34,457 nt of DNA, from IMG/VR virus record IMGVR_UViG_2908572912_000001, positions 1 to 34,457 of that record; one strand, given 5' to 3'. This DNA comes from a virus. Its lineage: Duplodnaviria > Heunggongvirae > Uroviricota > Caudoviricetes. Position 1 is the first letter of the stretch, and every line of letters starts with the position of its first letter. Made by a program: the position numbers and the translations under genes. The notes below the pieces were generated by a model. It was given only the letters and a program-made list of their open reading frames with translations, was not told where the DNA came from and ran no database searches. Positions 1 through 33,325 of the stretch are shown here, piece after piece.

Positions 1-267
1 TTACATATCATCAGCTGTGTATCGCAACACGATTTCCAGTGTTTTTCTAATCACATCAGCTTTGAGAATATCACTTGTTGTTTCCAGGGAGTGTATCAGA
101 CTTAAGATAATATTTTTATTATTAACATTATCGCCTGAAAGCATTAAATTGGTGACAGCCTGCCCTAACACTGCTGACTCTTCTTCTAACAAATTACCCG
201 AACTGCGAAAGTAACTTGCTAACGCTTTATCAGTTATTGCATTATGAATTGTAGTATCTTCAAGCAT
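1..267 (-). CDS. ariR: AriR/YmgB-like small regulator (88 aa), complete ORF with stop at bases 1-3
   Basis: 88-aa ORF recognised from memory as YmgB/AriR; lies directly downstream of ymgA on the same strand as in the ycgZ-ymgA-ariR operon. Not database-checked. Confidence 0.7.
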
Positions 268-295: not shown

Positions 296-568
296 TTAAT
301 GTATTCTGTTTATTTTCTTACCATTGAACATACTTTTATTGTCAGCTGTCGCTGTTCTTCGGTTTGGCCCTCCTGAATCACTATTGCTAAAATCACGAAT
401 TATGCTGTCAATTAAATCGCGTCGGAAAGCATCTTCCTCAGCCGATTTCATTACGAGTAATTGCTTAATAAGAGTCTGCAATGAAAAATTTATCTTCATG
501 CGCAGTATCTGGAGCACCGCCTGGCCAGTAATTTCATATTTTATACGTTCATTATCAGATGTCTTCAT
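296..568 (-). CDS. ymgA: YmgA-like small protein (90 aa)
   Basis: 90-aa ORF, length and sequence as remembered for YmgA; 28-bp spacing to ariR. Confidence 0.7.
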   Translation of the reverse strand: MKTSDNERIKYEITGQAVLQILRMKINFSLQTLIKQLLVMKSAEEDAFRRDLIDSIIRDFSNSDSGGPNRRTATADNKSMFNGKKINRIH

Positions 569-622
569 AACGACTTCATAGCTAACCTGTTAAATAATCA
601 GGCTGTTGCATTATTCAAAAAG

Positions 623-721
623 CAACCCAATTAGTGCATTATAATGTTTCTGTTCCTCTTCCCCAGTCGCGTGTTCCAGTCGGCAAAGAAGTTTGGCACA
701 AAGCGACTTTCGACTCAGATT
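623..721 (-). pseudogene. ycgZ: ycgZ 3' remnant (about 32 codons, ...LSRKSLCAKLLCRLEHATGEEEQKHYNALIGLLFE*), 5' part replaced by IS3
   Basis: Open frame ending just upstream of ymgA; reading frame is cut at the IS3 inverted repeat at 724. Confidence 0.45.
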
Positions 722-753
722 ACTGATCCTACCCACGTAATATGGACACAGGC

Positions 754-1620
754 CTAAGCGAGGTTCTTGTTTTCAAATTGTTCCGGACTGAGGCCGCCAC
801 ACCAACTGTGCCGCCGCCACCGATTGTAATCACATTCGATATAATTAAACACCGTTGCCCGCATTATTTCCCGGCTGATAAAGTGTTCTCCATGGATACA
901 TTCCACTTTCAGCGAATGAAAGAAGCTTTCCACGCAGGCATTATCGTAGCAGCAACCTTTTGCGCTCATACTTCCACGCAGATTATGCCGCTTCAGTTGC
1001 GCCTGATAATCTGCTGAACAGTACTGGCCTCCACGGTCCGTGTGAACGATAACGTTCCGGGGCCTCTTACGCCGCCACAGCGCCATCTGCAGGGCATCGC
1101 AGGCCAGTTGCGCCGTCATGCGTGGCGACATTGACCAGCCAATAACGGCACGTGACCACAGGTCAATGACCACTGCCAGATACAGCCAGCCTTCATCTGT
1201 ACGTAAGTACGTGATGTCTCCTGCCCACTTCTGGTTCGGGCCACTGGCGTAAAAATCCTGCTCCAACAGATTTTCTGACACAGGCAGGCCGTGTGCGCGG
1301 TAGCTGACCGGGCTGAACTTCCGGGAGGCCTTTGCCCTCAGTCCCTGACGGCGCAGGCTTGCCGCCACGGTTTTTACGTTAAAGGGGTAACCCTGAGCAC
1401 GCAGTTCATCCGTCAGGCGTGGGGCACCGTAACGCTGTTTTGACCGGGTAAAAGCCGCGAGGACAACGCTGTCGCAGTGTTGGCGGAACTGCTGACGCGT
1501 GCTTATCCTTGTCCGCCGCTGACACCACGTATACCAGCCGCTGCGGGCCACCCGGAGCACGCGGCACATTGCTTTGATGCTGAACTCAGCCTGATGTTTT
1601 TCAATAAAGACATACTTCAT
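754..1620 (-). CDS. insF: IS3 transposase OrfB (InsF), DDE integrase domain, normally expressed by -1 frameshift with OrfA
   Basis: 288-aa ORF overlapping orfA 3' end; DDE-type motifs ([22 protein letters not shown]). Confidence 0.9.
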
Positions 1621-1916
1621 TTCAGGCGCTTCGCGAAGTATGTCGCGGCCTTTTGGAGGATAGCCAGCTCTTCATCCCGTTCTGCCAGCTGGCGTTTGAG
1701 ACGTGCAATCTCGGTAGACATCTCCAGTTCACGTTCAGAAGACGTCTGCTGATTTTGCTGTTTACTGCGCCAGTTGTAGAGTTGTGATTCATACAGGCTG
1801 AGTTCACGGGCTGCGGCAGTAACACCGATGCGTTCAGCAAGCTTCAGGGCTTCACTGCGAAATTCAGGCGAATGCTGTTTACGGGGTTTTTTACTGGTTG
1901 ATACTGTTTTTGTCAT
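1617..1916 (-). CDS. insE: IS3 transposase OrfA (InsE), HTH
   Basis: [32 protein letters not shown]... ; classic IS3 OrfA. Track ORF extends to 1925 by an upstream alternative start. Confidence 0.9.
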
Positions 1917-2202
1917 GTGAGTCACCTCTGACTGAGAGTTTACTCACTTAGCCGCGTGTCCACTATTGCTGGGTAAGATCAATTTCACCTTTATCCCGCC
2001 CCTTAGACAGAATGTTATAATCTGAACCCACAACAGCGTTTGTACCGGAGCTGGTCCGTTGCAAAATGCTCACCGGGAGAATTCAGATATTCCCTCTATC
2101 ACACTCTGTACATATCACAGCCAAAGGACAGACCAGATTGAAGTGGTAAAACCGATCGTGCACACTACGCAGTCTCACAACTAACAAGAGGTTATTATCC
2201 TG

Positions 2203-2607
2203 ATGGATCAGGTCGTTGTTTTTCAAAAGATGTTTGAGCAAGTGAGAAAAGAGCAAAACTTCTCCTGGTTTTATTCAGAATTAAAACATCACCGTATTGC
2301 ACATTACATTTATTATCTGGCTACGGATAACATCAGAATTATTACTCACGATGATACGGTTTTGTTATTAAGAGGAACCAGGAACCTGTTAAAAGTTAGT
2401 ACGACCAAGAACCCTGCTAAAATAAAAGAGGCCGCATTGCTTCATATTTGCGGAAAATCTACATTTCGGGAATACTGTTCAACACTGGCAGGCGCGGGCG
2501 TTTTCCGGTGGGTTACTGATGTTAATCATAACAAACGCAGTTACTACGCCATTGATAATACGCTTTTATATATTGAAGATGTAGAAAATAATAAACCATT
2601 AATCTAG
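2203..2607 (+). CDS. ycgX: YcgX-like protein (134 aa)
   Basis: 134-aa ORF; assignment from remembered K-12 synteny (ycgX next to iraM) and length. Low certainty on the name. Confidence 0.5.
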   Translation: MDQVVVFQKMFEQVRKEQNFSWFYSELKHHRIAHYIYYLATDNIRIITHDDTVLLLRGTRNLLKVSTTKNPAKIKEAALLHICGKSTFREYCSTLAGAGVFRWVTDVNHNKRSYYAIDNTLLYIEDVENNKPLI

Positions 2608-2809
2608 CTAAAGTTGGATACTTAAGAAATGCTTCATAATTCAGTAAGGCATTAGCATAATGGAAATAAAAGTGCAGAGACTATCTCTATGGATGATTAA
2701 TACTGTCTTTTTATTGTCACCCATAAATAATCACCAGACTAATACTATCAACTTGATATTTGAAATGTGATCACTTGACTTTTGATACGTTATTTTATAA
2801 CGGTTAACA

Positions 2810-2846
2810 TATTTATAAAAACAACGGCCGTGCCACACGTCCGTTT
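2810..2846. terminator. Diverged copy of the icd 3'-flank hairpin/terminator (aaaacaacggccgtgccacacgtccgtttcaatacttaac)
   Basis: About 45 bp alignable with 3681-3725, with compensatory changes in the hairpin stem. Confidence 0.4.
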
Positions 2847-3306
2847 CAATACTTAACGCACATGTATTTTGGTTTAGTCATCATCCGGTTATATGTATTT
2901 TAGCCAGGAACAGGTTAAATCATTCCTATATAACTCAAAAATTGAAACCTTATTCTCATGTCATGCTTATATTCATTATTATCGTTATATAAAAAGGCAA
3001 CCATAATATTTAGCAAATTGGCACAAAGTAGCATAAAGGCTATGTTTTAATTACAGGATGTTCAGTCATTTGAATGTATAACATTATAGCTAAACAAATC
3101 TAAAACGAAGTCAATAATTTATTGCTTTCACAAAATCTCATTTTGTTTAACATCCATTGAGATTCCTTGCTTTAAATTTTATTTTATATAAGCCATCATT
3201 TTAATTAATTTATTTTTTTGAGGGGGGGGTAATATACTCATATGCAAAATCAAGAAATAAACATCCTAATGAACCATATTAAATACCGTGGGATAAGACA
3301 TAACAA

Positions 3307-3630
3307 ATGAAGTGGATAGTAATTGACACGGTAATTCAACCTACATGTGGTATATCTTTTTCAGCCATATGGGGTAATATGAAAATGATCATCTGGTATC
3401 AATCTACTATATTTCTCCCTCCTGGCAGTATATTTACACCGGTTAAGTCTGGTATTATCCTTAAGGATAAAGAATATCCTATTACTATTTATCACATCGC
3501 ACCATTCAACAAGGATTTATGGAGTTTACTCAAAAGCAGTCAAGAGTGTCCTCCAGGAGAAAGCAAAATAACAAATAAATGTTTACATAATAGTTGCATT
3601 ATAAAAATATGCCCATATGGGCTCAAGTAA
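3307..3630 (+). CDS. iraM: IraM-like anti-adaptor protein (107 aa)
   Basis: 107-aa AT-rich ORF adjacent to icdC, as in K-12 (iraM/ycgW next to the icd pseudo-3'-end); sequence recognised from memory. Confidence 0.65.
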
Positions 3631-3671
3631 TGGGCTTCATATAAATATGCTCGATATGCTATTAATAATAT

Positions 3672-3710
3672 CCACATAAATAAAACAACGGGCGTGTTAT
3701 ACGCCCGTTT
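3672..3710 (-). terminator. icd rho-independent terminator (hairpin aacgggcgtataacacgcccgtt followed by a T-run on the minus strand); also placed to stop iraM
   Basis: GC hairpin plus T-run immediately after the icd stop codon. Confidence 0.6.
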
Positions 3711-3732: not shown

Positions 3733-3900
3733 TTACATGTTTTCGATGATCGCTTCACCAAACTCTGAACATTTCAGCAGCTTAGCGCCTTCCATCAGAC
3801 GTTCGAAGTCATAAGTTACGGTCTTGGCATTGATTGCGCCTTCCATACCTTTAACAATCAGGTCAGCCGCTTCAGTCCAACCCATATGGCGCAGCAGTAT
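3733..3900 (-). pseudogene. icdC: Displaced 3' end of icd (isocitrate dehydrogenase), last 55 codons only = icdC-type prophage junction
   Basis: Translation [55 protein letters not shown] equals the Icd C-terminus; similarity stops abruptly at 3900. Confidence 0.9.
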
Positions 3901-4596
3901 ATAAAAACATTAAGTTCAAGTCATTGATATTTAATGATAAAAAATATTTTATTGTTTTTTTATTAGCCAAAATCAACTTTATTCAACCGTTTGATTTCAT
4001 TGACGTTCGTTTTTATTTTGGGGAAAGGTTTTCTCTACCATTTATATCCAAATTACAAGTCTACATTTTATTAACACCTCAATACATGTGAGGCCTTGCA
4101 GACCTTTGTGAGACCTTATGTGTCTCTGTTTTGTCCCAACTTATGTTAAGAGGCACATAATTAAAAATAAGATAACGATGCCGCCAATCAGTGCAAAACC
4201 TTGTTTACTCCACGACTGTCTGCCCCATTATCTGCATACATAATTATCTTCCATAACTGAGATAAATGTCGGTTATGAGCGAACAACAGACGTTTAGTTT
4301 ATGATGACTGTATCTATACATTAAACATAACATCCATTACCGGCACCGCTTATTAATTGCTATCTGATATTGTCACTAAAAAATAGGCATTCCCCGATAT
4401 AATAATTACAAAGAAGCTTTTGGTGCTGGCAATCGGTATACCTAATAGTGGACTGCGACTTTCCGGGCTCGACAAGGATATATCAATGTATGAGCAGGAA
4501 AATTAGACCGTGGTGCGTCATATGATGACTAAGCACGGATAACAGCTACTTAATTGAAACTATTGATTATATTACAGCCAGTGCCTTATAGGATGG

Positions 4597-5718
4597 TTAG
4601 TCATCAACCGCGACTCCTGCACAATCATGGGCTATTGCCAGCAATTGTTTTTTAATTGCTTTAGCATCTACCGTCATATCTACTGTAGCAAAATGGATCT
4701 TATGTCCCTGAGTGACAACATACTCATTAAGCATATAGCCAACAGCTGGATGAAGTAGAAGACCAGCGGCATTGAGCGAAAGCGGATCCGTCTTGTTCTC
4801 CTGTGTTCTAAGGTAGGTATATAGCTGATAAATATAGCCATTACGTAGTGATTGCTCCCGATGCCAACCCTTTGTCAGAATCGAATTAAATTTGGTATCG
4901 ATAATAATACGCCGCTGGGCAGTCTTGTGTTCCAGAATAATGTCTGACTTCATTGTCGGGAAAATCTCTGCACTACCTGCACTTTGATCGCTCAACGCCC
5001 ATTTCAGCTCTTTCCCTGCAGAGACCTGCCAAGTTGTTTTGGCAAGGTGTACACGATATAAGCCAGCGATACCTTTTTCAAATAGTCTTCTCATCCAGTA
5101 AAGGTTATTTGAGGGCGCAGGTAAAAGATATTGGCCTTGATCTTCGGTCGGCATCAGCAGTTCAAAAGCTAATCGTGCGGCATCGACCATCGGTTTATCT
5201 GCGGCATCATGGCGTCCAAAACGCCACACTGAGGGTAATTCGTGGGGGGCAGGATATCCTCCATTTATCCCCTCACGGCGAAGTGATATTGCCATAAAAT
5301 GGCAATCTGCCGCCAAAGACGGTTTCACTATGATTGAGGCCAGACGTTCTAACGCACAGCGAACATAGCGATTTCGGGGGGTGTTGAGGGTTATGTCTTG
5401 AAAATGGCAGGCAACCTGTCCCCGTTCCAGTAGTTGATGACTGGCAGTATACAGTATGTCAATGCGCCCTCTCACCCGGTTCAGGGCCGCATGACAAGTT
5501 TGGTATCCCATATTTAAATTGCGACGTCGGCGCAGCGTAATCTCATGAAGGAGGATTGTCGCCACCAGGTCGGGGATTTCTGCTGGGTTATCTTCTACTG
5601 CGATCTGATTGCGCCCTAACTGACGAAACAGATCTGAAGCGTACAGCATCAGCATCCAGATATTTCGCATGGGAATACGTGATGCTGTATGTTGCTCACT
5701 CCCGGTTATTGTCGTCAT
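4597..5718 (-). CDS. mcrC: McrC-like endonuclease subunit (PD-(D/E)xK) of a McrBC-type modification-dependent restriction system
   Basis: N-terminal IPMRNIWMLMLYA resembles McrC IPVRNIYYMLTYAW; C-terminal IIIDTKF...NGYIYQLYTYL matches the McrC nuclease motif (VDAKY...NLYQLMNYL). 4-bp overlap with upstream mcrB-like gene. Confidence 0.8.
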   Translation of the reverse strand: MTTITGSEQHTASRIPMRNIWMLMLYASDLFRQLGRNQIAVEDNPAEIPDLVATILLHEITLRRRRNLNMGYQTCHAALNRVRGRIDILYTASHQLLERGQVACHFQDITLNTPRNRYVRCALERLASIIVKPSLAADCHFMAISLRREGINGGYPAPHELPSVWRFGRHDAADKPMVDAARLAFELLMPTEDQGQYLLPAPSNNLYWMRRLFEKGIAGLYRVHLAKTTWQVSAGKELKWALSDQSAGSAEIFPTMKSDIILEHKTAQRRIIIDTKFNSILTKGWHREQSLRNGYIYQLYTYLRTQENKTDPLSLNAAGLLLHPAVGYMLNEYVVTQGHKIHFATVDMTVDAKAIKKQLLAIAHDCAGVAVDD

Positions 5719-7697
5719 TTTGCTAATAACACTTTTCTGGCTTCATCGACTTTATTTGGAGCATCGAACCAATATTCGGCGAGCAAAGGGCAGATCTCTG
5801 TATCAACGACTTGTTCATACCAAGCCTGGGCATCGTTGATTTTTTGGCCGATAGCTGGGGTGACATAGCTGTGACCGATACAAAACTGTGGTCCTAAGGT
5901 AACATCTTTTGCCAGCATATCGTTAAGTACCGTCAGTCGAGATTTGATGAATGCTAACATGTCAAAATCAATTGCGTAATTATAATTTACCCAGTTTCTC
6001 CACGCGTCATTAAAAGCTGGCTTTAGATCGATAAACGCGAAACGACGGCGCAGCGCTAGGTCAAGTAGTGCGAGTGAGCGGTCTGCAATATTCATCGTAC
6101 CGATGATATATAGATTCTCAGGAATGTATATTTTTTCATCATCATTTTTAGGATAGGAAAGAGATAATGCCTCAGTCGGCGTGCGTTTATCTGCTTCCAT
6201 CAACGTGAGTGTTTCACCGAAGATTTGCGCCGGATTGCCACGATTAATCTCTTCAATTATCACCACATATTTCGAGGTAGGATTATTGACTGCAGTTTTG
6301 ATTGCATTTACAAAAGGTCCATCAATTAGCGTCAATTGCCCTTCTTTACCTGGACGCCAGCCGCGAATAAAGTCTTCGTAAGAGAGGTTCGGGTGAAATT
6401 GCACCGCGCTAATACGCTCAGGTGCTTTTTCTCCCATCAAGCAGTACGCCAGACGTCGCGCTAACCAGGTTTTTCCAGTTCCGGGTGGTCCTTGTAATAT
6501 CAGGTTTTTCTTGTCGATCAGGCGCTGAAGTGTGAGTTGGATCTTAGCCTCTTCCAAGAAACAGCCATCCTGCACCAGATGACTGATGTCATAAGGAACG
6601 TGAGTGAGTTTTGGCAACGGCGCACTCTCTTCGACAGTTTCCTCAGTTATCGTCTGGGATTCGTTTTTCTCAAAATTCAGGTATTCATAATTTCCGGACT
6701 CAAGGGACTTTAACTCATCATCATTGCATAGTTTCTGTAGATAAAAGTAGATTGAGCTTGTAACTGTTTTGCTCTCAGGATGCTCTACCTTGAATACGTC
6801 CAAGTAGTTTTCTTCCAACTCCGAAGCAGTGAAATAAGGGCCATTTTTTTTCAGGCATAACGCCTTAATTTTATTCAGTAAAGAGGCTTTCCACGTTCTA
6901 TTTGCCACCTCATCTTTAGACTGGCTAAGATCTGTATTCCACGCTGATAAAGAAAGTTCTGGGAAAGAATGAACCGGATAGTTTGGTTGGGTAAAGACCT
7001 CGTTCAGCGCCCGCATAAGACTCAGGTAACTTTGTCCACTACAGCGACCTTTTGCCCCGTTTTTAATGATCTTAATGTTTAACACTGTCTGAATGTAATA
7101 CTGCGACTGGCTATCTAAAGTAGGGTAGAACCAAGGACGGGTCCAGTACAACCCCATGGTGAGATTCCAACCGACATTCATTACTGTAGAAGCGATGTCA
7201 TATGCGGCAGTGAAGTCTGCAGAGTTAGTATTCTGGTTATCCGCAAAGGTCATTGCCTGCGAGAACATTTCCCACAAGCATTCAATGTCATTAGGGTCGC
7301 GTGACTTTTCATAACCAAAGAACCAAGATTTTTGGTTATTCAACAGCGGGATTCCGGCAAAGGAGTCAGGAATCGGTTCGTTCACGCCCAACAAATTCGC
7401 TAGCTTGGCAGCAATAATTTTGCGATTGCTGTCGGTCAAGTTACGATTGAACAAGCCCATAGTAGTAAACGGACAAATGTCTTTTAAGGGAAAGATCTCT
7501 CCCATAATAGATTTGTCCTGCAGATGGGACATTCCTTCCACACCTGAGGCAATTAGATGAATACCTTTGACTAATTCATCTCTACGATTTCGCCAAGTCA
7601 GTAACGCGTTGGCAAAAGCCTCATAAAAACTAGCCCAAGCAAATTTGCCATCATGTTCTGCTGTATCCACGGGAACTCCATTATACTTGTTGAGCAA
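5715..7697 (-). CDS. mcrB: McrB-like AAA+ GTPase (C-terminal 270 aa) with a long, unrecognised N-terminal domain of about 390 aa
   Basis: C-terminal LILQGPPGTGKTWLARRLAYCL, VVIIEEINRGN, YIIGTMNIADRSLALLDLALRRRF align with EcoK McrB GTPase motifs; N-terminal region has no similarity I recognise. Confidence 0.8.
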   Translation of the reverse strand: MLNKYNGVPVDTAEHDGKFAWASFYEAFANALLTWRNRRDELVKGIHLIASGVEGMSHLQDKSIMGEIFPLKDICPFTTMGLFNRNLTDSNRKIIAAKLANLLGVNEPIPDSFAGIPLLNNQKSWFFGYEKSRDPNDIECLWEMFSQAMTFADNQNTNSADFTAAYDIASTVMNVGWNLTMGLYWTRPWFYPTLDSQSQYYIQTVLNIKIIKNGAKGRCSGQSYLSLMRALNEVFTQPNYPVHSFPELSLSAWNTDLSQSKDEVANRTWKASLLNKIKALCLKKNGPYFTASELEENYLDVFKVEHPESKTVTSSIYFYLQKLCNDDELKSLESGNYEYLNFEKNESQTITEETVEESAPLPKLTHVPYDISHLVQDGCFLEEAKIQLTLQRLIDKKNLILQGPPGTGKTWLARRLAYCLMGEKAPERISAVQFHPNLSYEDFIRGWRPGKEGQLTLIDGPFVNAIKTAVNNPTSKYVVIIEEINRGNPAQIFGETLTLMEADKRTPTEALSLSYPKNDDEKIYIPENLYIIGTMNIADRSLALLDLALRRRFAFIDLKPAFNDAWRNWVNYNYAIDFDMLAFIKSRLTVLNDMLAKDVTLGPQFCIGHSYVTPAIGQKINDAQAWYEQVVDTEICPLLAEYWFDAPNKVDEARKVLLAK

Positions 7698-8039
7698 TGA
7701 TAATTTATCTGTGTGAGTTTTAACATATTACTATCAGTTATAGAAAAATTTAACTACCCGATACAGAGAGCGGCATGCTGAATTTGACCTGACTTGCTTC
7801 CAACCAATTAAAATCAACTTATTTATCAATTGGTTATTTTGGCGCATAGCGGTCATCAAGGGAATATCGCGTTGTCATAAGGTGTCGAGGCTCGGAGGTT
7901 CAAATCCTCTCATGCAAAAAATAAATAAAATTAATGACGGTTGGAAATTATTCAATACATACACTCTCGAAAGTGCATCAACCAACCGCAGCACGTCTTG
8001 CATACGGCGTGTCTGCAGTTTTATATAATCCTGGCTGGA

Positions 8040-8262: not shown

Positions 8263-8737
8263 AAATAAAAAAAAACCATCGATGTTGACGTGTCAATGTT
8301 ACCTGTCAGGCTACGGAAATCCCCCCCCTTACCCGCAGCTACTCGGTAAGTATAATAAGATGTTTCCTGCTCCTTCCTAACCTGTCCAGTTTCCAGACAA
8401 TTAAAGTATCACCTTATATAAGAGACTGCAGAGCGCACTTTAACCTAGGTCGTTCTGAAATAGTTGCAGATTCGATTAATCAACGATTATACTCCCCGGC
8501 ACTCCAGAGGATCTGGTAAACATAAAGTCAGAGCTTGGGTATACTGGCACACAAATGGCAGATCTTGCAGGTGCAGCCAGTCATAGCCAGTGGCGAAAAT
8601 ACACGAGTGGTTCTGAGCCCCGCGCCATGTCATCACATATCTTGTTTTTTTATTGCTACCAATCTGACTTTGAGTACTAATGAGCTAGATAGAATTGTTT
8701 GTAAAATAAAAAAAATTGGAACAGTGATTATATAAAA

Positions 8738-9826
8738 ATGAAGAAGGTAAAATCAATTCACTATTTGCGAGGTGTAGCAGCATTACTCGTTGTTGCATAT
8801 CACAATAAACAATACCTAAATGAAGTTTACGCACAAAAAGATCTAGGTGATTTATTGTTTATTAGTGGTGGTTTTGGGGTTGATCTGTTTTTTATTATAA
8901 GTGGATTTATAATAATGTTATCGAGTCAAAAAAAAGAAACAAATTCCCCTATTAACTTTATGACCAGGCGTTTTTTCAGGATTTACCCTGTATTTTTCAT
9001 TTGCACAATCTTATTCTTTTTATTGAACCCAGTCTTCACCGAAAGTGAATTATTGCGTTCATTGTTTCTGCTTCACCTGGACTATTATTCAGAAGCGCCA
9101 TTCTTCGGATACAACGTGCTTTATCCAGCATGGACATTAACCTTTGAAGTCTATTTTTATTTCATTTTTATGCTTGCAATATCGCTGAGTCATAAAAACA
9201 GATTATTAATATCAGTTATTGCATTGATAGTCCCGCTACTTCTCATACAGTTGAAATTTTCCAACAGCCTTTCTCTATCAAGTAAGTTTACGATTGGTGA
9301 TACAGGTCATTGGCATATTGGCTTTCTAAACTTAATGTCATCACCCATGCTGTTAGAATTCGTTTATGGGATGTTTCTGTATATAATACACAGAAAATTT
9401 AAATATATAAAAAACGCAAAGGCGATATCATTCCTTTTGGTTTCATTTGGTGTTTGCTCATATTTTTATCAATTCAGATTTGGTCATGGCCCTTTAAACT
9501 TCGGATTGTGGGCAGCCTCCATAATTACGGGAGTTTTACTTTATGAAGTTAACTTCGGATTAAGGGAAAATAAAATACTCAGTAAGCTAGGTGATATCTC
9601 TTACTCTCTGTATTTATCCCATGCGATAGTAATGCTATTTTTAATTAATTTTAAGGATTTCATTCCGCTTTATGAAAAACCTGGGTTCTCTAAGTTTTCA
9701 TTCATTATTGCTCTTAGCTTGTTCTTATCATTCTTTATTTATAAATATATTGAAACTCCATTCATTAATATCGGAAAAACAATATCCAAAAGACTTTCAA
9801 AACCAACATTAACTTATAGCGAATAG
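8738..9826 (+). CDS. Acyltransferase family 3 integral membrane protein (OafA/Oac-like O-acyltransferase), AT-rich cargo gene
   Basis: 362 aa, about 10 hydrophobic segments, N-terminal YLRGVAALLVVAYH and FFIISGF motifs typical of acyltransferase-3; very low GC relative to neighbours. Confidence 0.75.
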   Translation: MKKVKSIHYLRGVAALLVVAYHNKQYLNEVYAQKDLGDLLFISGGFGVDLFFIISGFIIMLSSQKKETNSPINFMTRRFFRIYPVFFICTILFFLLNPVFTESELLRSLFLLHLDYYSEAPFFGYNVLYPAWTLTFEVYFYFIFMLAISLSHKNRLLISVIALIVPLLLIQLKFSNSLSLSSKFTIGDTGHWHIGFLNLMSSPMLLEFVYGMFLYIIHRKFKYIKNAKAISFLLVSFGVCSYFYQFRFGHGPLNFGLWAASIITGVLLYEVNFGLRENKILSKLGDISYSLYLSHAIVMLFLINFKDFIPLYEKPGFSKFSFIIALSLFLSFFIYKYIETPFINIGKTISKRLSKPTLTYSE

Positions 9827-10533: not shown

Positions 10534-13310
10534 TCAACGAATACTGATGCCGGAAGCAGCCTTTTTGGTCACAATCACCGTACAGTCGGTGATATTGCCT
10601 GCCCCCTGATTGCCTTTCTGGAAAATCTTAAACTCCAGAGTGACGCTTCCCCTGCCACTCGGCATATCAATAACCGCACTGTAACTACCGGGAATGGCCC
10701 CTTTAGTTTCTCTGGATGCGATTAATACGCCGTTTTTGCGAACTTCAAAACCATACCCCGTGTACCTTGTACCTCCCGGGTTATCACCACTTCCCGGATC
10801 GTCATACGCTATACCGTTAAAGATAATGGGCGGAATAATGATTTGACGGTCAAAGTTATGATCATCGCTGATGGTGACTGTAACCGTCCCGTCTGGTGTT
10901 TCCGTGTTACCCCACGTACCAGCCTTTTTCGGGAATGATTTGGATACTGTTTTAACAAAATCACCTCTGACCTGATTCGCCTCCAGCATACCCTTAATCG
11001 TACAGTTTTCATTTATCGTGACGTTGTTGAGCGTCCCGGCGTTCGCATTCACACTGCCACTGATATCCGCATTTTTAGCGGTCAGCTTTCCGTCCGGTGT
11101 CAGGGAAAATACCGGTGGATTTCCACCACTGGTAATGGTGGGGGCCGTCAGGCGTTTGAGGAACACGTCGTTCATGAATATCTGGTTGCCCTGCGCCACA
11201 AACATCGGCGTTTCATTCCCGTTTGCCGGGTCAATAAACGCGATACGATTGGCGGCAACCAGAAACTGGCTCAGTTTGCCTTCCTCTGTATCCTCCATGC
11301 TGAGGCCAAGCCCCGCGACATAATGCTTACCGTCTTCGGTCTGCTCAATTTTGACGCCCCACATGGCATTCCATTTATCGTTGGCGTCCTTCCACTCTTT
11401 CGAAAACTCCTCCAGTCTGCTGGCGTTATCCTCCGTCAGCTCGACTTTTTCCAGCAGCTCCTTGCCGAGATGGGATTCGGTTATCTTGCCTTTGAAAAAA
11501 TCCAGGTAACCTTCCGCATCATCGCTCGCCCGACCAACGGCTTCCACGAATGCCGATTTGCCAACGGTGTTCACACTGCGGATATAAAAGTAATAATCAT
11601 GGCCCGGTTTGATATTGATACTGGCGGCTATCCAGTACAGCGCCGTACCAAGATAGCGGGCTGTGGTTTCAACCTGCCTGATATCGGTAATCCGCTTTTC
11701 CGAGAACCAGAACTCAAACTGTACCGTCGGGTCATAAACGGCAAGATGCGGCGTGGCGGTTATCTGAAAATAGCCCGGCGTCAGCTCAATCCTCGACGGT
11801 GTTGCCGGTGCGGCAATCCGGAACGATACCGACGCCGGATCGCCCTGCTGTCCCCACGCATTTACCGCCCGGACTGTCAGCGTGTACCGCCCCAGCGCCA
11901 GTTGCGTGAAGCGGTATGTGGTTTCCGTCGTCCGGGCCGTGCTGACCAGCCGCTCACTGCCGTCATCCGCTGCCACGGTCAGGCGAAGCATAAAGCTCAC
12001 CCCCTTCACCACCTTCGGCGTGTCCCAGCGCGCCAGCACCTGATATTCCCCGCTGTCTGCGGTGACTTCGGCAGTCAGGTGCTGCACCGCTGGCGGCGTG
12101 ACACCATTCACCGTGCCGCTCTGGTCGCCGTCAAAGTGCGCCCCGTTATCCACGATGGCCTCTTTTTCCGGTACATGCTGCACGGCGGTGATGGCATACG
12201 TGCCGTCATCGTTCTCACGGATACTCACGCAGCGGAACAGACGCTGGCGCAGCGTCGGCAGCTTCAGCCCCCATACGCTGTATCCGGCAACGCCGTCAGG
12301 AACACGGCTCACTTTTACCTTCACGCCGTCGGTGACGGACTGGACCTCCACGCTGACCGGATTGCCACTTCCGTCAACCAGGCTTATCAGCGTGGTACCG
12401 GAGGATGGCAGCGTGATTTCACGGTCAAGCGTCAGCGTCCGGGTCTGGCTGTTCACCGCCAGCACGCGCCCGCCGATGCTGATCCCCGCATAGTCATCAT
12501 CGCAGATTTCAATAACATCACCCGGCACATGGCGAAGCCCTTCGGCACCCACGCTGAAATCCACGGTCTGCGTCTCCAGCAGCTCCGTTTTAATCAGCCA
12601 CAGCCCGGCGCGGTGTGCCTGCCCCCGGCTGGTACAGCCAAAGGCATCCATCTTCGTGACGTTACGACCGTAACGGGCAATGGCCTGCGTGTCCTCCACA
12701 AGCTCTGTCGCCGTCTCCCAGCCGTTATCCGGGTCAATCCAGTTCACCTCAACGGCATTATGGCGGTCCTTCAGGGCGCTGAAGCTGTAGCGGAACGGCG
12801 CGCCATCATCCGGCATCACCACATTACTGCGGTTATAGGTCCACACCTTATCTGATGGTCGGTCCTGCACGAACGTCAGCGTCTGCCCGTTCCATACCGG
12901 CATACAGCGCATCGCCGAGCAGAAATCACTGAGCACATCCCACGCCTTGCGCTGTGTGGTCAGGTACGCATTACAGGTGATGCGCGGCTCCGTGCCGCCA
13001 AAGCCGTCCGGCACTGACTGGTCGCAGTACTGGCCGATGACATACAGCGCCCATTTATCCACATCCGCCGCACCAAGACGTTTCCCCATGCCGTAGCGCG
13101 GATGGGTCAGCATATCCCACAGACACCAGGCCATGTTGTTGCTGTACGCTGGCCTGAACGTTCCGTCCCAGATACCGCTGTATTGCCGCGTCTGCGGGTT
13201 ATAATTCGACGGCACCTGCAGAATACGCCCGCGCAGATGATAATTACGGCTCACCTGCTGGCTGCCGAACTGCTCCGAGTCCACCTGCACGCCGACCAGT
13301 GCCGTGTTCG
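10534..13310 (-). pseudogene. J: Tail tip/host-specificity protein J, C-terminal ~918 codons only (N-terminal ~200 codons deleted)
   Basis: Translation matches lambda J from ...[19 protein letters not shown] to the C-terminal receptor-binding region; no ATG start, upstream sequence is nu1 in another frame. Confidence 0.9.
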
Positions 13311-21685: not shown

Positions 21686-23581
21686 TTAATTATTTTTCTT
21701 TAACTTGAAATTTCTTCCCATTGCTAGTGTTCTTCGAAGATTCGAATCATAAGCTGGTTGATAATATCTATCATAAAAATCCTTAATTGTCTGATGGTAA
21801 GTATCCAGCATCAAACCATAAAACCCCATGACCTTAAGATAATCCACCAAGGGAAATAAATAATCATCAGTCTGAACATCAGTATCAATATTATTTTTTT
21901 GTTTTTTAACTTCAAATTTGTATAAGTTTAACTCACCCTTATCCATCGTGCATGAAAAAAGGTCGTCAAAAATCAAATCAATTTTTGTCATAGGAACTCG
22001 TTCTTTTCCAGACATTATAGGTAGAATATCAATACCTAAGAGCGAACCTAATACAAAGTCGTAATGAAGCGAAATCACTGAGTCATTCGATGTCGAGTTG
22101 CCTTTGATAAATACTCTACTTAGTGCCGAGTCAAAAACATTCTCAACTCTCTCTCTCGTCATGTTTGCGACATCTACAACCCCCATATCACGAGAAGCTT
22201 TTATTGTGATTTCATCTATAAATGCTTTGGAATCTAGTGAATGTAAAAACAACATGAAGTTATCTAACTGTTCAGAGCATTTAATAGCCACCATAAGATT
22301 TTCGTATATATCTTTTTTATACTCAATCGGTAAATTTGCTACCGCAAAAGCAGCATAAAATTCTTGCACTGATTTATGCAGAAAAACATACCTATTATTT
22401 CCCTCAGGTTGGATAAGGCAAGTTATCTCAATAAGATCATCTATAAAGTTTGATGCATCTTCTTTAAGATAACCTTCTGTTTCAATAGCATCTTCAGCAT
22501 ATCTAAGCAACTCCTCTCCCCAAAACTCAAATTTCTCCTCAATCAGTGCGTTATAGCAAATAGCTGAAAAACACAATTTAGCTTTTTCACCAATAATGTT
22601 TGATTTTTTCTCGCGCGTATATACTTTTATTTTATCATGCCTTGCATATAAGGTGTCAAAGAGGCTTCGATAAAACTCTATTATATTATTTGGAATATCA
22701 TTCATATAAGGATAACAATAATACAAAAGAGTAACTAAAATTGGATTGCAAATAGTTCCCTCAAGTTCTTCTTTATCACATAGTAAATCCGCCAAGACTT
22801 TAAACGAGGCATCACTACTTGAGAATCTGTCATTTTTCGATAAAGAATGAAGAATACAAATCTTATCAGAAATATTTAGCTTATCTATAAAAATATTATA
22901 CACATCAGTAGTATAACATATATCTGTATTTGGTCTCGTTGTTGCGATAATTGGTGTGTTAAAATGATAATGAATGTTTTTTATTTCATTCATCATCATA
23001 GTTCGCTCTTCATGTTTAACCTCATCAAATCCATCCAACATTAAAACGACTCTTTGGGATTGCAGTAATATTTTCAAGCTATCCTCTGAACACCCCACAC
23101 CAAATGAATTAAGAATGTCTGCCAGATAAGCAATAATATTTGCATTCTTCACCCTTCTTAATTCAATAAAAAAAGGCATCCGTTCTGATTTTTTTATTTC
23201 CTCGCTAAACAACTTGCGTAAAATAGTACTTTTCCCTTGCCCCGCTATACCGACTATATTTACAATACCATGAAATGGTAAAGTGACCCCATCTTTTATA
23301 ACGACCTTGTCTTTATTAGATGCCACCTCAACAGTTAACGGATAATAAATATCATCTAAAAAAATATCATAATCAGCGTTGTGCAAAGTTCTCATTTTCA
23401 GAGATGGTAGCACATGCTTTCTTAAATAATTTTCTCTTCCGAGGGGATCATTTAATTGTTCGAGTATAACCTTGCCTTCATCTAGGTCCCTAGCCCAAGG
23501 TTTAGAGAGCAATACTTCTGTTATTTTTTCCGCAGCTTTTCCTACTGTGCTATTAATAATAGTCGCAAGAAACTCATCCAT
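21686..23581 (-). CDS. NACHT-family STAND NTPase (bacterial NLR-like), candidate antiphage protein; ~110-aa N-terminal region, central NACHT, ~350-aa C-terminal region
   Basis: Walker A GIAGQGKST, NACHT-type Walker B VVLMLDGFDEV, sensor-1-like IIATTRP; GC ~30 percent island. Start placed at ATG (MDEFL...) preceded by GGTGA; track alt-start gives 23638. Confidence 0.8.
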   Translation of the reverse strand: MDEFLATIINSTVGKAAEKITEVLLSKPWARDLDEGKVILEQLNDPLGRENYLRKHVLPSLKMRTLHNADYDIFLDDIYYPLTVEVASNKDKVVIKDGVTLPFHGIVNIVGIAGQGKSTILRKLFSEEIKKSERMPFFIELRRVKNANIIAYLADILNSFGVGCSEDSLKILLQSQRVVLMLDGFDEVKHEERTMMMNEIKNIHYHFNTPIIATTRPNTDICYTTDVYNIFIDKLNISDKICILHSLSKNDRFSSSDASFKVLADLLCDKEELEGTICNPILVTLLYYCYPYMNDIPNNIIEFYRSLFDTLYARHDKIKVYTREKKSNIIGEKAKLCFSAICYNALIEEKFEFWGEELLRYAEDAIETEGYLKEDASNFIDDLIEITCLIQPEGNNRYVFLHKSVQEFYAAFAVANLPIEYKKDIYENLMVAIKCSEQLDNFMLFLHSLDSKAFIDEITIKASRDMGVVDVANMTRERVENVFDSALSRVFIKGNSTSNDSVISLHYDFVLGSLLGIDILPIMSGKERVPMTKIDLIFDDLFSCTMDKGELNLYKFEVKKQKNNIDTDVQTDDYLFPLVDYLKVMGFYGLMLDTYHQTIKDFYDRYYQPAYDSNLRRTLAMGRNFKLKKNN

Positions 23582-23968
23582 TTTTTCACCACATTCATTA
23601 ACCAATACGTGGTGCATTCTTACAAGACTCAGTAACAATTGTCAATCATAGGTTTTCGCATGATTGCAAAACGCCATAAACAATTGTAGCACCATAATTT
23701 TAAACACTATAAATATACAACCTTCCTACAAGCATTCAGTACATCGCTTAATCACAGGGCTTGAATATATAGTAAGGAATCGATATTAATCACCTCATCT
23801 ACTTTAAACATCTTACACACCTATAATTTATAATAGTCAACACGAGGTCATCATATTAAACATGCAATTACAAACATTCATTTTTATATAAATTTTCATG
23901 ATTTAACCGTAGAGCGACGGTAATAAATTTCATATACAAGGATTTAAGCTCCCATACGTTTTCTATTA

Positions 23969-24925: not shown

Positions 24926-25035
24926 TATCAATTCCTATTGGTATTGCAATGAATAAATAATAGCAATGCGTATTAATCCAAGCAATAGCAAAACGTGTTT
25001 TGACCATCAATACGCAAGCGTATAAATTAAAACTT
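24926..25035. promoter_or_regulatory. Immunity-region divergent promoters and operators: pR candidate on minus strand (-35 TTGCTT 24980-24985, 17-bp spacer, -10 TATTAT 24957-24962); pRM candidate on plus strand (-35 TTGACC 24999-25004, -10 TATAAA 25021-25026) giving near-leaderless cI
   Basis: Consensus-like sigma70 hexamers with 16-17 bp spacing; spacers contain TAGCAAT/GCAATAGCAA and TACGCAAGCGTA motifs. Confidence 0.55.
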
Positions 25036-25728
25036 ATGAAAAAAGAAACTCTTGCTGATCGCTTAAACCTAGCGATGGAACAATCTGGAATGTCTCAAGG
25101 CGCTCTTGCAAAGGCGTCTGGCGTAGCTCAACCCACAATCTGGAGACTGACAAGCGGCAATGCGCGCGGCTCAACAAAAATTGTTGAAATAGCTAATGCA
25201 TTGGGTGTTCGAACAGAATGGCTCTCTTCAGGCATAGGCCCGATGAGAAATGACGGTCAACAATCAGGGAAGCCTGCTGTCAGCCATTCCAAATACTTCA
25301 AAATTGACGTTCTTGATATAGAAGTCAGTGCCGGGCCGGGTGTAATCAACCGTGAGTTTGTAGAAGTTCTACGCTCGGTTGAATACTCGTTTGACGATGC
25401 TCGTCACATGTTCGATGGCAGGAAGGCGGAAAATATCCGCATCATTAACGTGCGTGGTGACAGCATGTCAGGAACGATCGAACCAGGTGATCTGCTGTTC
25501 GTTGATATCACGGTTAAATCTTTCGACGGTGATGGTATCTATGCGTTTCTGTATGACGACACCGCCCATGTAAAACGCCTGCAAATGATGAAGGATAAGC
25601 TGCTGGTTATCTCTGATAACAAGAGCTACTCACCGTGGGACCCGATCGAGAAAGACGAGATGAACCGCGTGTTCATCTTCGGGAAAGTCATCGGGAGCAT
25701 GCCGCAGACATATAGAAAGCATGGGTAG
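25036..25728 (+). CDS. cI: CI-type prophage repressor (N-terminal HTH, C-terminal LexA/S24 autopeptidase-like domain)
   Basis: HTH MSQGALAKASGVAQPTIWRL; C-terminal VRGDSMSGTIEPGDLLFVD and HVKRL (Ser/Lys dyad pattern). Track alt-start at 25000. Confidence 0.85.
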   Translation: MKKETLADRLNLAMEQSGMSQGALAKASGVAQPTIWRLTSGNARGSTKIVEIANALGVRTEWLSSGIGPMRNDGQQSGKPAVSHSKYFKIDVLDIEVSAGPGVINREFVEVLRSVEYSFDDARHMFDGRKAENIRIINVRGDSMSGTIEPGDLLFVDITVKSFDGDGIYAFLYDDTAHVKRLQMMKDKLLVISDNKSYSPWDPIEKDEMNRVFIFGKVIGSMPQTYRKHG

Positions 25729-25857
25729 AAATCAGAACAAAATTATGCACTTCGCTTTTCAGCTTACTGTAGTAAGGCAATAAATTAGGCTTGACGTTAG
25801 CTATCAGGTGCACAACAATAATTGTTGAATAATAGGTTTTTTTAACTAGGTGATAAC

Positions 25858-26997
25858 ATGGCAGCGGTTGAATTTCAATTGTCTAGGAAGATGATTGATT
25901 GGATAGCAAATTCTCAAGGAGTTTCTATCGAAACTCTTGCTGACCAAGTCATGCCCAAAAAGATTAATAAATTTCTTAACGGAGTGGTAAGTAAATCCGC
26001 AGCAGAAAAACTGGCAAAAATTGGAGGAATCCCTTTCGGTTTTTTATTTCTTGAAACGCCACCAACTCCAGCCAAACCCAAGATCCCTGACTTAAGGCAA
26101 GCTATAAATAGCCGTGAGTTAGGAAAAGATTTTTTTGATGTTTACTATGATATAGAATATAAACTTGAGTGGTACAAAGACTATTTAAGAGAAAATGGTA
26201 ATGATGATCCACTCGATTTTATTGGTAAATTTAAATTTAATAGAAAATTAAATTATAAGGTTGTTGCTACAGACATAGCAAACACAATACATTTTGATAT
26301 ACAAAAAGAGATAAAAAATGTCACTTTTGAGAGCTATTTTTCTAAAGTGGCAAAACTAATAGAAGACACTGGCGTATTAGTTTTCAAGAATGGTGTTGTG
26401 GGTAATAATAATAAAAGAAAACTTGACACGCGAGAGTTTCGTGGTTTCTGTATATCTGATAGCGTTGCTCCGATCATTTTTGTAAATAGCTCGGACGCGT
26501 TATCTGCGCAGGTATTTACATTATTTCATGAGGTGGCTCATCTTTGGCTTGGAGTCGATGGAGTCTCTGGGTGGGACACAGAAAAAAACATAGAATCTTT
26601 TTGTAATAAAGTTGCTGCTGAAATCTTAATGCCTGATAATCTCTTCAAATCTTTCTGGCTTAATGCATCCAGCGATAATAATTATTATCGAGTAAAAGAG
26701 GTTTCTAAGTTATTTAAGGTTAGTGATTTCGCTTGTGCAATCAAAGCGTTACAATTAGATTTGATAGAAAGAAACACTTTGGAGATAATTAAAGATCAAG
26801 CTTACAATAAGCCCAAAAAAGAATCCAATGGTGGTTCTTTCTTTAACACATTACCTGTTCGTAACAGTCCAAAACTTACGAATATAATAATTTCCAAAGC
26901 AATGTCTCAACAATTACCATTAAGGGAAGCAGGCGTACTGCTAAATGTAAAAGCAGATACAGTTGTTGAATTTTATAAAAAACGAGAATCTCTATGA
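25858..26997 (+). CDS. HTH domain fused to ImmA/IrrE-family HExxH metallopeptidase (COG2856-like)
   Basis: HEVAHLWLG zinc-binding motif at about residue 215; N-terminal HTH-like segment; GC ~33 percent; located where rexA-rexB sit in lambda. Confidence 0.75.
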   Translation: MAAVEFQLSRKMIDWIANSQGVSIETLADQVMPKKINKFLNGVVSKSAAEKLAKIGGIPFGFLFLETPPTPAKPKIPDLRQAINSRELGKDFFDVYYDIEYKLEWYKDYLRENGNDDPLDFIGKFKFNRKLNYKVVATDIANTIHFDIQKEIKNVTFESYFSKVAKLIEDTGVLVFKNGVVGNNNKRKLDTREFRGFCISDSVAPIIFVNSSDALSAQVFTLFHEVAHLWLGVDGVSGWDTEKNIESFCNKVAAEILMPDNLFKSFWLNASSDNNYYRVKEVSKLFKVSDFACAIKALQLDLIERNTLEIIKDQAYNKPKKESNGGSFFNTLPVRNSPKLTNIIISKAMSQQLPLREAGVLLNVKADTVVEFYKKRESL

Positions 26998-31636: not shown

Positions 31637-31713
31637 AAAAATTGATAAATTCAATACTGCATTTCTCAGCATGAACCGCCCCGGGTTTCCTGGAGAGTGT
31701 TTTATCTGTGAAC

Positions 31714-32604
31714 TCAGGCTGCCAGATCATCGTTTCCGATGGAAGCATAATAAGCTTTTTCTGCTTCTGCCGGAGGAGTATGGCCCAGCCTTTCCAGCAA
31801 TCGTCGATTGTTATACCAGTCCACCCACGTGAGTGTGGCCAGTTCCACTTCTGCACGGTTTTTCCAGCTCTTACGGTGTATTACCTCCGCTTTGTAAAGG
31901 CCATTGATGCTCTCCGCCATCGCGTTGTCATACGAGTCGCCTGTACTTCCTGTTGATGCCAGTAATCCGGCTTCCTTAAGCCGCTGTGTGTAGGCCAGCG
32001 ATACATACTGAGAACCTTTATCACTGTGATGGACTGTGCCGGACGGTCGACGGGCCCATAACGCCTGCTCCAGAGCATCCAGCACAAATGTCGTTTCCAT
32101 AGACGATGAGACCCGCCACCCCACGATGTATCCGGCAAACACATCAATGATGAACGCCACATAGACGACCCCCTGCCATGTGCTGACGTAAGTAAAATCA
32201 GCCACCCACAACTGGTCAGGACGTTCTGCCACGAACTGACGGTTTACGCGGTCGCCTGCGACAACGGCTTTCCGGCTGATGGTCGTACGGACCTTTTTAC
32301 CCCGGAGAACACCGGCAAGTCCCATAACCGCCATGAGACGTGCCACAGTGCATCTGGCCACTCTGATACCTTCCCGTAACAACTGACGCCAGACTTTACG
32401 CACACCGTATACCTTGTGATTTTCATCGTATACGCGCTGTATCTCTTTCTTCAGCCAGTCATCGCGCTGCGCACGGGCACTGCGTTTATCCGGATGATGT
32501 CGCTGTTGCTGACAGTGGTAATACGTTGACGGGGCAATATGCAGTTCGCTGCATAGCGGTCCGACCCCGTACTGCTCACGCAGCTTATCCAGCAGTGGCA
32601 TCAT
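31714..32604 (-). CDS. IS629-like transposase OrfB (DDE)
   Basis: 296 aa with DDE integrase-core motifs ([19 protein letters not shown]). Confidence 0.9.
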
Positions 32605-32927
32605 TTTTTCCAGAGGCGGTCGAACTCCGCCTTCGCAAAATAAGCGGAAGCCTGGCGAAGGATATCGTTACTGCGGCGCAGTTCACGATTTTCACGTTCC
32701 AGCTCTTTCAGACGCTGACGTTCAGCGGTGGTGAGCCCGCCATCACCGCCTCCGGTATCCCGCTCATGCTGGCGTACCCAGACACGCAGAGTCTCCGGTG
32801 TACAGCCAATCTTTGGGGCAATGGAACAAATTGCCGCCCACTGTGAGTCATATTCGCCCTGACTTTCCAGAACCATACGAATCGCCCTCTGACGGACTTC
32901 GGGGGAAAAACGAGTATTTTTAGTCAT
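32601..32927 (-). CDS. IS629-like transposase OrfA
   Basis: [57 protein letters not shown]... as remembered for IS629/IS1203 OrfA. Confidence 0.9.
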
Positions 32928-33088
32928 CCTGTTTACCTCTTTCTCAGGGAGTTTAGTCTCCAGGATTCCCGGGGCGGTTCAGCATTAAATTTATCTCTAT
33001 GACCAGTCAAGAGATGTACCTGCCATGAGCTTAATATCATGTCAGATATATCGGTCACAAACTCCCTCAGCAGCTAAGAGGAGGACAA

Positions 33089-33325
33089 ATGTCTCGACTA
33101 ATCACTTTACAGGACTGGGCTAAAGAAGAATTTGGGGACTTAGCACCAAGTGAGCGAGTTCTGAAAAAATACGCGCAAGGGAAAATGATGGCCCCACCCG
33201 CTATAAAAGTTGGTCGCTACTGGATGATTGACCGAAATTCCCGTTTTGTAGGAACGCTTGCAGAACCGCAACTCCCAATAAACGCAAACCCAAAACTCCA
33301 ACGGATAATCGCTGATGGCTGCTAG
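33089..33325 (+). CDS. xis: Excisionase-like protein (Xis) overlapping the integrase start
   Basis: 78-aa ORF immediately upstream of and overlapping int; name from position. Confidence 0.65.
   Translation: MSRLITLQDWAKEEFGDLAPSERVLKKYAQGKMMAPPAIKVGRYWMIDRNSRFVGTLAEPQLPINANPKLQRIIADGC

Follow-up and report, generated by a model that had tools for sequence, protein, structure and literature searches.

An intact IS3 element replaces bluR, bluF, the ycgZ promoter and the first half of ycgZ upstream of ymgA-ariR

The window analysed here, i.e., the whole stretch of 34,457 nucleotides of the IMG/VR record IMGVR_UViG_2908572912_000001, begins at the stop codon of ariR and contains a lambdoid prophage at icd that differs from the e14 element of K-12. 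Its first part carries the following features:

1–267, minus strand: ariR (ymgB), intact from the first base of the window, which lies at its stop codon; translation identical to K-12 AriR
296–568, minus strand: ymgA, intact, the first complete gene now downstream of IS3; translation identical to K-12 YmgA
611–723, minus strand: 3' remnant of ycgZ, 113 nt, comprising 2 nt of codon 42, codons 43–78 and the stop codon
611–736, minus strand: hybrid ORF of 41 aa, starting with GTG within the IS3 terminus and in frame with the ycgZ remnant
721–723: left flanking triplet TAC, the last ycgZ bases before IS3
724–1981, minus strand: complete IS3, 1,258 bp, with its right end (IRR) at 724 and its left end (IRL) at 1981
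754–1620, minus strand: IS3 orfB (InsF), 288 aa, with DDE domain; NCBIfam NF033516
775–805, minus strand: putative outward promoter signature TTGGTG-19 nt-CAATTT in the right end of IS3, a pattern match pointing at 'ycgZ-ymgA-ariR
823–849, minus strand: second putative outward promoter signature TTTAAT-15 nt-TACAAT in the right end of IS3, a sequence match
1617–1916, minus strand: IS3 orfA (InsE), 99 aa, from the list of open reading frames and a weak NCBIfam match
1982–1984: right flanking triplet ATT, in which base 1982 ends the TAA stop codon of bluR
1982–2202, plus strand: retained bluR-ycgX intergenic region, inside a K-12 alignment of 1,720 bp with a single mismatch
2203–2607, plus strand: ycgX (DUF1398), intact; Pfam PF07166; identical to K-12 YcgX
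3307–3630, plus strand: iraM; protein identical to K-12 IraM

The ends of the IS3 element read TGATCCTACC... at 724 and ...GGTAAGATCA at 1981, and comparison of the two ends reveals imperfect terminal inverted repeats that start with TGATC.... Over 1,255 bp, the element matches K-12 IS3A without a difference (100% identity), and its full length of 1,258 bp shares 99.8–99.9% identity with the copies in seven further strains; perfect 3-bp duplications enclose five of these copies, which served to set the boundaries given above. It shows 1 mismatch to three other copies, and its sequence bears no chimeric mark. Both orfA and orfB are intact and overlap by 4 nt. For the orfB product, the NCBIfam model NF033516 (IS3 family transposase; cut-off 160) gives 339 bits, orfA alone is short and yields a weak match to the NCBIfam IS3 transposase N-terminal model below the curated cut-off, and RefSeq labels the same IS3 protein 'programmed frameshift'. 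With regard to ycgZ, the remnant matches positions 8026–7914 of the K-12 locus (L001), and its translation corresponds to residues 43–78 of YcgZ, a regulator reported to act on OmpF.

Escherichia coli K-12 MG1655 (NC_000913) served as the reference for the deletion in blastn comparisons. Positions 1–723 of the window correspond to NC_000913 1,216,635–1,215,913 with 2 mismatches (99.7%), and positions 1982–3700 correspond to 1,213,328–1,211,610 with 1 mismatch (99.9%). The 2,584 bp that separate these segments in K-12 (1,213,329–1,215,912) are absent at IS3, precisely between the ends of the element. Of bluR, only the final base of the TAA stop codon has survived; the bluR-bluF spacer and bluF are lost entirely, and so are the 313-bp control region of the divergent bluF and ycgZ and the initial 124 nt of ycgZ. 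The right junction can be placed with an uncertainty of one base, because IS3 ends in an A and the second base of the bluR TAA is an A as well, and no microhomology exists between the two K-12 breakpoints. A preliminary description of this DNA, which relied on the K-12 gene order, had proposed that IS3 replaces the 5' part of ycgZ as well as bluR and bluF, which were expected between ycgX and ycgZ, and had suggested alignment to K-12 as a check. The alignment bears out each of these points: 2,584 bp are missing exactly at IS3, the gene order is correct for K-12, both blu genes are absent from the window, and ycgZ has lost 124 nt (codons 1–41 plus one base) and kept codons 43–78. It is thereby confirmed that IS3 replaces the genes for BluF and BluR, the ycgZ promoter and the first half of ycgZ.

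bluR and bluF were to be expected at this locus. The bluR-bluF segment of K-12 was found in 5,010 of 5,426 complete RefSeq E. coli genomes (92%), and in 4,921 of the 5,426 at a coverage of at least 80%. Furthermore, bluR, bluF and ycgZ were called next to the gene for McrC in 10/10 sampled genomes whose prophage McrC is identical to that of the window, and likewise next to ycgX in 10/10 sampled genomes with an identical YcgX. The possibility that this lineage normally lacks bluRF is contradicted by their presence in 5,010 of 5,426 genomes and in all 20 sampled McrC/YcgX genomes, and the assumption of the earlier description that both genes belong at this locus therefore holds. The closest of the sampled McrC/YcgX genomes is CP119404.1 (100% identity over 880 bp, 99.76% over 6.2 kb). 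In that genome, IS1 transposase genes are located between bluR and bluF as well as elsewhere in the locus.

The arrangement found in the window is private, because neither junction occurs in any of the collections searched. Queries of 140 bp retrieved neither junction when run against the complete genomes (5,426), no exact match to a 34-mer across either junction was obtained from metagenome contigs or GTDB representatives, and a look-up of the hybrid 41-aa ORF by exact sequence in the gene collection gave no entry. Look-ups with the exact McrC and YcgX sequences, with flanks reaching the junctions, returned no sister allele. A precursor, i.e., IS3 with a TAC or an ATT duplication at either of the two sites, was found neither in complete genomes, metagenome contigs and GTDB representatives nor in the gene index, although one may exist among unsampled genomes. 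A sister genome was not found either, so that the strain itself is not among the complete genomes searched.

The triplets flanking IS3 on its two sides, TAC and ATT, are unequal, so that its present context is not that of a simple insertion, a conclusion that leaves the identity of the element unaffected. Re-inspection of the flanks revealed no 3-bp or 4-bp duplication around IS3 and thus ruled out an overlooked offset or 4-bp duplication, in agreement with the earlier observation that the flanking triplets form no duplication. Taken by themselves, unequal triplets are expected by chance in 63/64 of cases and carry no signal. The missing duplication is informative because genuine IS3 insertions carry one and because the loss of DNA starts and stops exactly at the IS ends without microhomology. 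In other strains, five simple insertions of IS3 at this locus each have a perfect 3-bp duplication, namely in bluF of strains GmM062 (GTC), A30 (ATA) and Res13-PEB20 (CTT), in bluR of strain ECCHD184 (TAC) and in ariR of strain MS20654 (GTG). A second IS3-family element within the window (positions 31672–32981, 1,310 bp) is flanked by GCA on both sides, and in strain A29 an IS3 located at a deletion junction at the same locus likewise lacks a duplication. The window thus constitutes a clean and well-controlled case in which an absent target duplication flags an IS-linked deletion.

As to the origin of this arrangement, the intact IS3 at the exact junction, the lack of a duplication and the lack of microhomology support the suggestion of the preliminary description that the deletion was mediated by IS3. 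This mediation is read from the anatomy of the locus, and we consider it highly probable (roughly 0.9) when adjacent deletion, recombination between two IS3 copies and IS3 capture are taken jointly. Within this framework, a route involving a single copy of the element receives about even odds. IS3 would first have inserted at one of two sites, ycgZ (with duplication of TAC) or the bluR stop codon (with duplication of ATT), and its transposase would then have deleted adjacent DNA, one IS end transposing intramolecularly into a nearby site. Such an event would eliminate the 2,584 bp and one of the two duplicated triplets, leaving a single intact IS3 between unrelated flanks. A missing duplication is characteristic of IS3-family elements that lie at deletion junctions (PMC11708052). 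Deletion of adjacent DNA in dependence on the IS3 transposase has been shown experimentally (Kanai et al., NAR 2022, PMC8860574), and in three LTEE populations all 14 of 14 deletion events associated with IS150, a member of the IS3 family, lacked a duplication and occurred where the IS had previously resided at the same position (PMC11708052). The same final product, one intact IS3 with each flank stemming from a different insertion, would be obtained from two direct copies, one in ycgZ with TAC and one at the bluR stop codon with ATT, if RecA-dependent recombination looped out 2.58 kb and one IS3. Missing duplications have been ascribed to adjacent deletion or to recombination between identical IS elements, the latter being a frequent cause (PMC11708052), and the independent IS3 insertions in bluF, bluR and ariR of other strains indicate that IS3 does land at this locus. 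However, this second route requires two independent insertions of the same orientation within 2.6 kb, neither of which was found on its own among the 5,426 complete genomes, and the IS3 sequence, with its 1 mismatch to three other copies, carries nothing that marks it as a chimera. Adjacent deletion and recombination between IS3 copies give an identical end product, and the single-copy route is favoured solely on grounds of parsimony, because it needs one insertion fewer; recombination between two copies is accordingly the less probable of the two, though still a serious candidate.

The remaining explanations carry far less weight. IS3 could have arrived in the same event that caused the deletion if a copy or circle of the element had been captured at a double-strand break, without a staggered cut of the target. 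Such break capture, which has been proposed for IS5 and IS481 (PMC11708052), would likewise place an IS in the middle of a deletion with no duplication, but the hypothesis is itself unproven, the IS3-family (IS150) cases in the same study are all explained by insertion plus adjacent deletion, and both ends of IS3 are precise to the base in the window, as is typical of junctions made by a transposase. We therefore regard it as unlikely. A deletion mediated by microhomology and followed by insertion of the IS was rejected, as the breakpoints share no microhomology and a later insertion should have left a duplication. Least probable of all is an artefact of assembly, in which two IS3 copies would surround an intact bluR-bluF-'ycgZ segment and the repeat would have been collapsed by the assembler. 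IS3 is indeed a multi-copy repeat with a median of ~4–5 matches per genome. Even a collapse, however, would require two IS3 insertions at these sites, present in none of the other genomes (5,426 searched); moreover, repeats usually break short-read contigs instead of collapsing, the 34-kb window passes cleanly through two IS elements, and similar real deletions are known from finished genomes. Returning to the deletion mediated by IS3, the allele in the window is previously unrecorded, but it is an ordinary deletion of the kind mediated by IS3-family elements and reveals no new mechanism.

With respect to the regulatory consequences, ycgZ, ymgA, ymgB and ymgC are transcribed as a single polycistronic mRNA with a transcription start site 36 nt upstream of ycgZ, and the ycgZ promoter, which is sigma-S-dependent and carries the BluR operator, is the only mapped promoter of the operon (Tschowri et al., 2012, PMC3509220). 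Upon exposure to blue light, BluF releases BluR, and YmgB and YmgA then activate the Rcs system, with the effect that colanic acid increases and curli decrease (PMC3509220). Of this BluF/BluR-Ymg module (Tschowri et al., 2009, 2012), the window has lost bluF, encoding the BLUF-EAL sensor, bluR, encoding the MerR-like repressor, the promoter with the BluR operator and codons 1–41 of ycgZ, and it has kept the output genes ymgA and ariR intact. The proposal that the blue-light/cold input and the native promoter of ycgZ-ymgA-ariR were removed is thus sustained, since all of these elements lie inside the deleted interval. We infer that ymgA-ariR can respond neither to blue light and cold via BluF/BluR nor to other regulators acting at the deleted ycgZ promoter. 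At the genetic level, the strain has lost the only known input of blue light and low temperature into the Rcs/biofilm network of E. coli (BluF to BluR to ycgZ-ymgAB), and the way in which its colanic acid, its curli and its OmpF respond to light, to cold and to stress signals that act at the deleted ycgZ promoter should therefore differ from K-12.

Our best guess for ymgA-ariR is either silence or weak, unregulated transcription driven by IS3. The transposase gene of IS3 is co-directional with ymgA, the orfB stop codon precedes the start codon of ymgA by 185 nt, and a scan of the minus strand between orfB and ymgA detected no terminator-like site. Transcription of ymgA-ariR by read-through from IS3 or from a weak outward promoter is therefore conceivable, albeit speculative. 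The hexamers TTGGTG/CAATTT are those of the 'mobile promoter' of Charlier et al. (1982), as quoted in PMC12095673. In a reporter study from 2025 the right end of IS3 was weakly active; the '3R(+)' fragment of that study bears the TTTAAT-TACAAT signature, and a pause site within its last 50 bp approximately halves reporter output (PMC12095673). In the window, the motifs in the right end of IS3 are weak matches to the consensus; a generic sigma-70 scan did not flag these outward motifs and detected no convincing hybrid promoter at the IS3/'ycgZ junction. The hybrid ORF of 41 aa was considered as a functional truncated YcgZ and judged unlikely to be one, as no ribosome-binding site was seen and its product is not on record; inspection by eye, as opposed to a formal scan, found no Shine-Dalgarno-like sequence upstream of it. 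As judged from these sequence features, the ORF is probably not expressed.

In order to map IS-linked deletions at this locus, other genomes were placed on K-12 coordinates. IS1A replaces ycgZ-bluF-bluR in strain FCI56 and, with a different right end, in the 12 genomes of the EC-107 clade; IS1 replaces the same three genes in strain PM4; and in strain E203449 another IS3-family element replaces ycgZ-bluF. These four cases resemble the window in that ycgZ and bluF are lost (together with bluR in three of the four) while ymgA-ariR and ycgX are kept, and their left breakpoints all fall into the 3' part of ycgZ (K12rc 3993–4088). They differ from the window in their IS elements, breakpoints and lineages, and no junction is shared with it. 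Losses linked to IS1 or IS3-family elements have thus arisen independently in at least four other lineages, and the allele in the window joins the few independent cases in which this module was lost in connection with an IS. Other deletions at the locus have different extents: in strain A29, IS3 stands in place of a stretch that runs from ymgC into bluF, whose 5' part is lost, and in strains M159-1 and ECCHD184 IS1 removes the DNA from within pdeG through bluF.

It is tempting to view such losses as adaptive, i.e., to assume that removal of the BluR/BluF/YcgZ input by IS elements has been selected repeatedly, with ymgA-ariR kept behind an IS promoter. This idea concerns the persistence of the allele and not its origin, and it is compatible with any mechanism of deletion. 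If it were true, the connectors activating Rcs would be constitutive and no longer depend on light or cold, a state that might be of advantage in host-restricted lineages. At least four other events indeed drop ycgZ and bluF, keep ymgA-ariR and place the IS transposase on the ymgA strand, and IS3 has been described as able to act as a mobile promoter (Charlier, 1982, as cited in later work). Nevertheless, ymgA-ariR were found in 4,944 genomes, i.e., in fewer than bluRF (5,010), which indicates no net preference for keeping ymgA-ariR, and the deletions in strains A29, M159-1 and ECCHD184 take ymgA-ariR as well. Where the orientation of IS1 and other IS elements could be assessed without bias, it was the same in 4/4 cases (p = 0.125), two of which may share one ancestral insertion. 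The uniform orientation of IS3 itself was likewise considered as a sign of selection for IS3-driven ymgA-ariR and was rejected as an artefact of ascertainment, as only pieces on the same strand were joined and the query contained IS3. A hot spot for IS3 at the locus is not supported: a rough baseline of ~22,500 copies in the collection multiplied by 4 kb/4.9 Mb predicts ~18 copies by chance, compared with ~8–13 seen, so that no enrichment is apparent. Selected rewiring is tempting, yet the evidence speaks against it, and we consider it improbable.

In comparison with known systems, the element in the window conforms to the IS3 of K-12 (IS3A-E; insE/insF) in its sequence, its orfA/orfB DDE transposase and its imperfect terminal repeats, and differs from that type in lacking the 3-bp duplication seen at five simple insertions at the same locus. 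The LTEE deletions formed by IS150 differ from the window in that a time series demonstrated the prior insertion there, whereas here one natural genome is available and no precursor is on record; they correspond to it in having an IS3-family element exactly at the junction and no duplication, and the 2,584 bp fall within the reported range of 14 bp to 49 kb. In the case of argE, for which IS3 serves as a mobile promoter (Charlier, Piette and Glansdorff, 1982, as quoted in PMC12095673), the same hexamers of the right end face promoterless genes, while at the junction in the window the promoter is a putative one, identified as a motif match. The process termed 'insertion-deletion-excision' for IS3 (PMC8860574) was observed with a plasmid reporter under selection and ended with excision of the element, whereas IS3 is not excised here; in both cases, however, DNA next to a resident IS3 is lost and downstream genes are brought to promoters of the IS.

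With regard to simple insertion, a second IS3-family element in the same window serves as a control:

31672-32981: IS3-family element of 1,310 bp with orfA (108 aa) and orfB (296 aa)

Its terminal inverted repeats are 25 nt long (TGAACCGCCCCGGG...), and a perfect 3-bp duplication, GCA, is present on both sides. The element presumably resembles IS629/IS1203.

In other E. coli strains (loci L002-L012), the interval from pdeG to ycgX has been subject to numerous independent IS events. Simple IS3 insertions were found at three different sites in bluF and once each in bluR and ariR, at least five different deletion junctions carry IS1 or IS3, and ycgZ holds or adjoins IS1 in a number of additional strains, one of them being XL10-Gold (H118), a derivative of K-12. 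By rough estimate, the IS events at pdeG-ycgX do not appear to exceed the genome-wide rate. The closest relative found, L014 (GCA_029223645.1, CP119404.1), has the right flank in common with the window at 99.8-100%, and bluR, bluF and ycgZ were all called in this genome. IS1 transposase genes are located there in the bluR/bluF interval, in the ymgK/ymgL interval and beyond the acyltransferase gene. The background of L014 appears to be one of much IS activity at the locus.

A duplicate of the 3' end of icd is followed by a partly degraded lambdoid prophage of about 30 kb. The features noted in this prophage and next to it are as follows:

3222-3229: G8 run upstream of iraM, inside a block aligned gap-free to K-12
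3733-3885: icd 3' duplicate, an icdC-like remnant
4597-7697, minus strand: McrBC-like pair borne by the prophage, McrC (373 aa, Pfam PF10117) and an AAA_5 GTPase-like partner (660 aa)
8321-8328: C8 run of the prophage, preceding the acyltransferase gene
8738-9826, plus strand: Acyl_transf_3 acyltransferase, prophage cargo
10534-13290: tail-tip protein J ORF of only 918 aa
16834-17916, plus strand: OmpC/NmpC-type porin, prophage cargo (Porin_1, 509 bits)
21686-23638, minus strand: NACHT-domain NTPase (650 aa) inside the prophage
25000-26997, plus strand: 242-aa ORF, then a 379-aa M78 (IrrE-like) peptidase protein
33315-34457: lambda-type integrase, cut by the window end

PADLOC returned no match for the McrC protein of the window, which is widespread in identical form (6,923 index blocks in an exact-sequence look-up), and none for the NACHT-domain NTPase, which may be a defence gene of the Avs/STAND type. 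The M78 peptidase protein matched PADLOC capP (E = 1e-14) as well as RmrA models, while RmrA-like matches of the preceding ORF were weak only; together, within the immunity region of the prophage, the two may constitute either a regulator pair or a defence-associated module. Among the remaining genes, the acyltransferase may act in O-antigen modification and the tail-tip protein J ORF may be truncated, and both homopolymer runs are potential slippage sites. Compared with e14, the K-12 prophage at icd, the prophage of the window occupies the same attachment site but is a different element.
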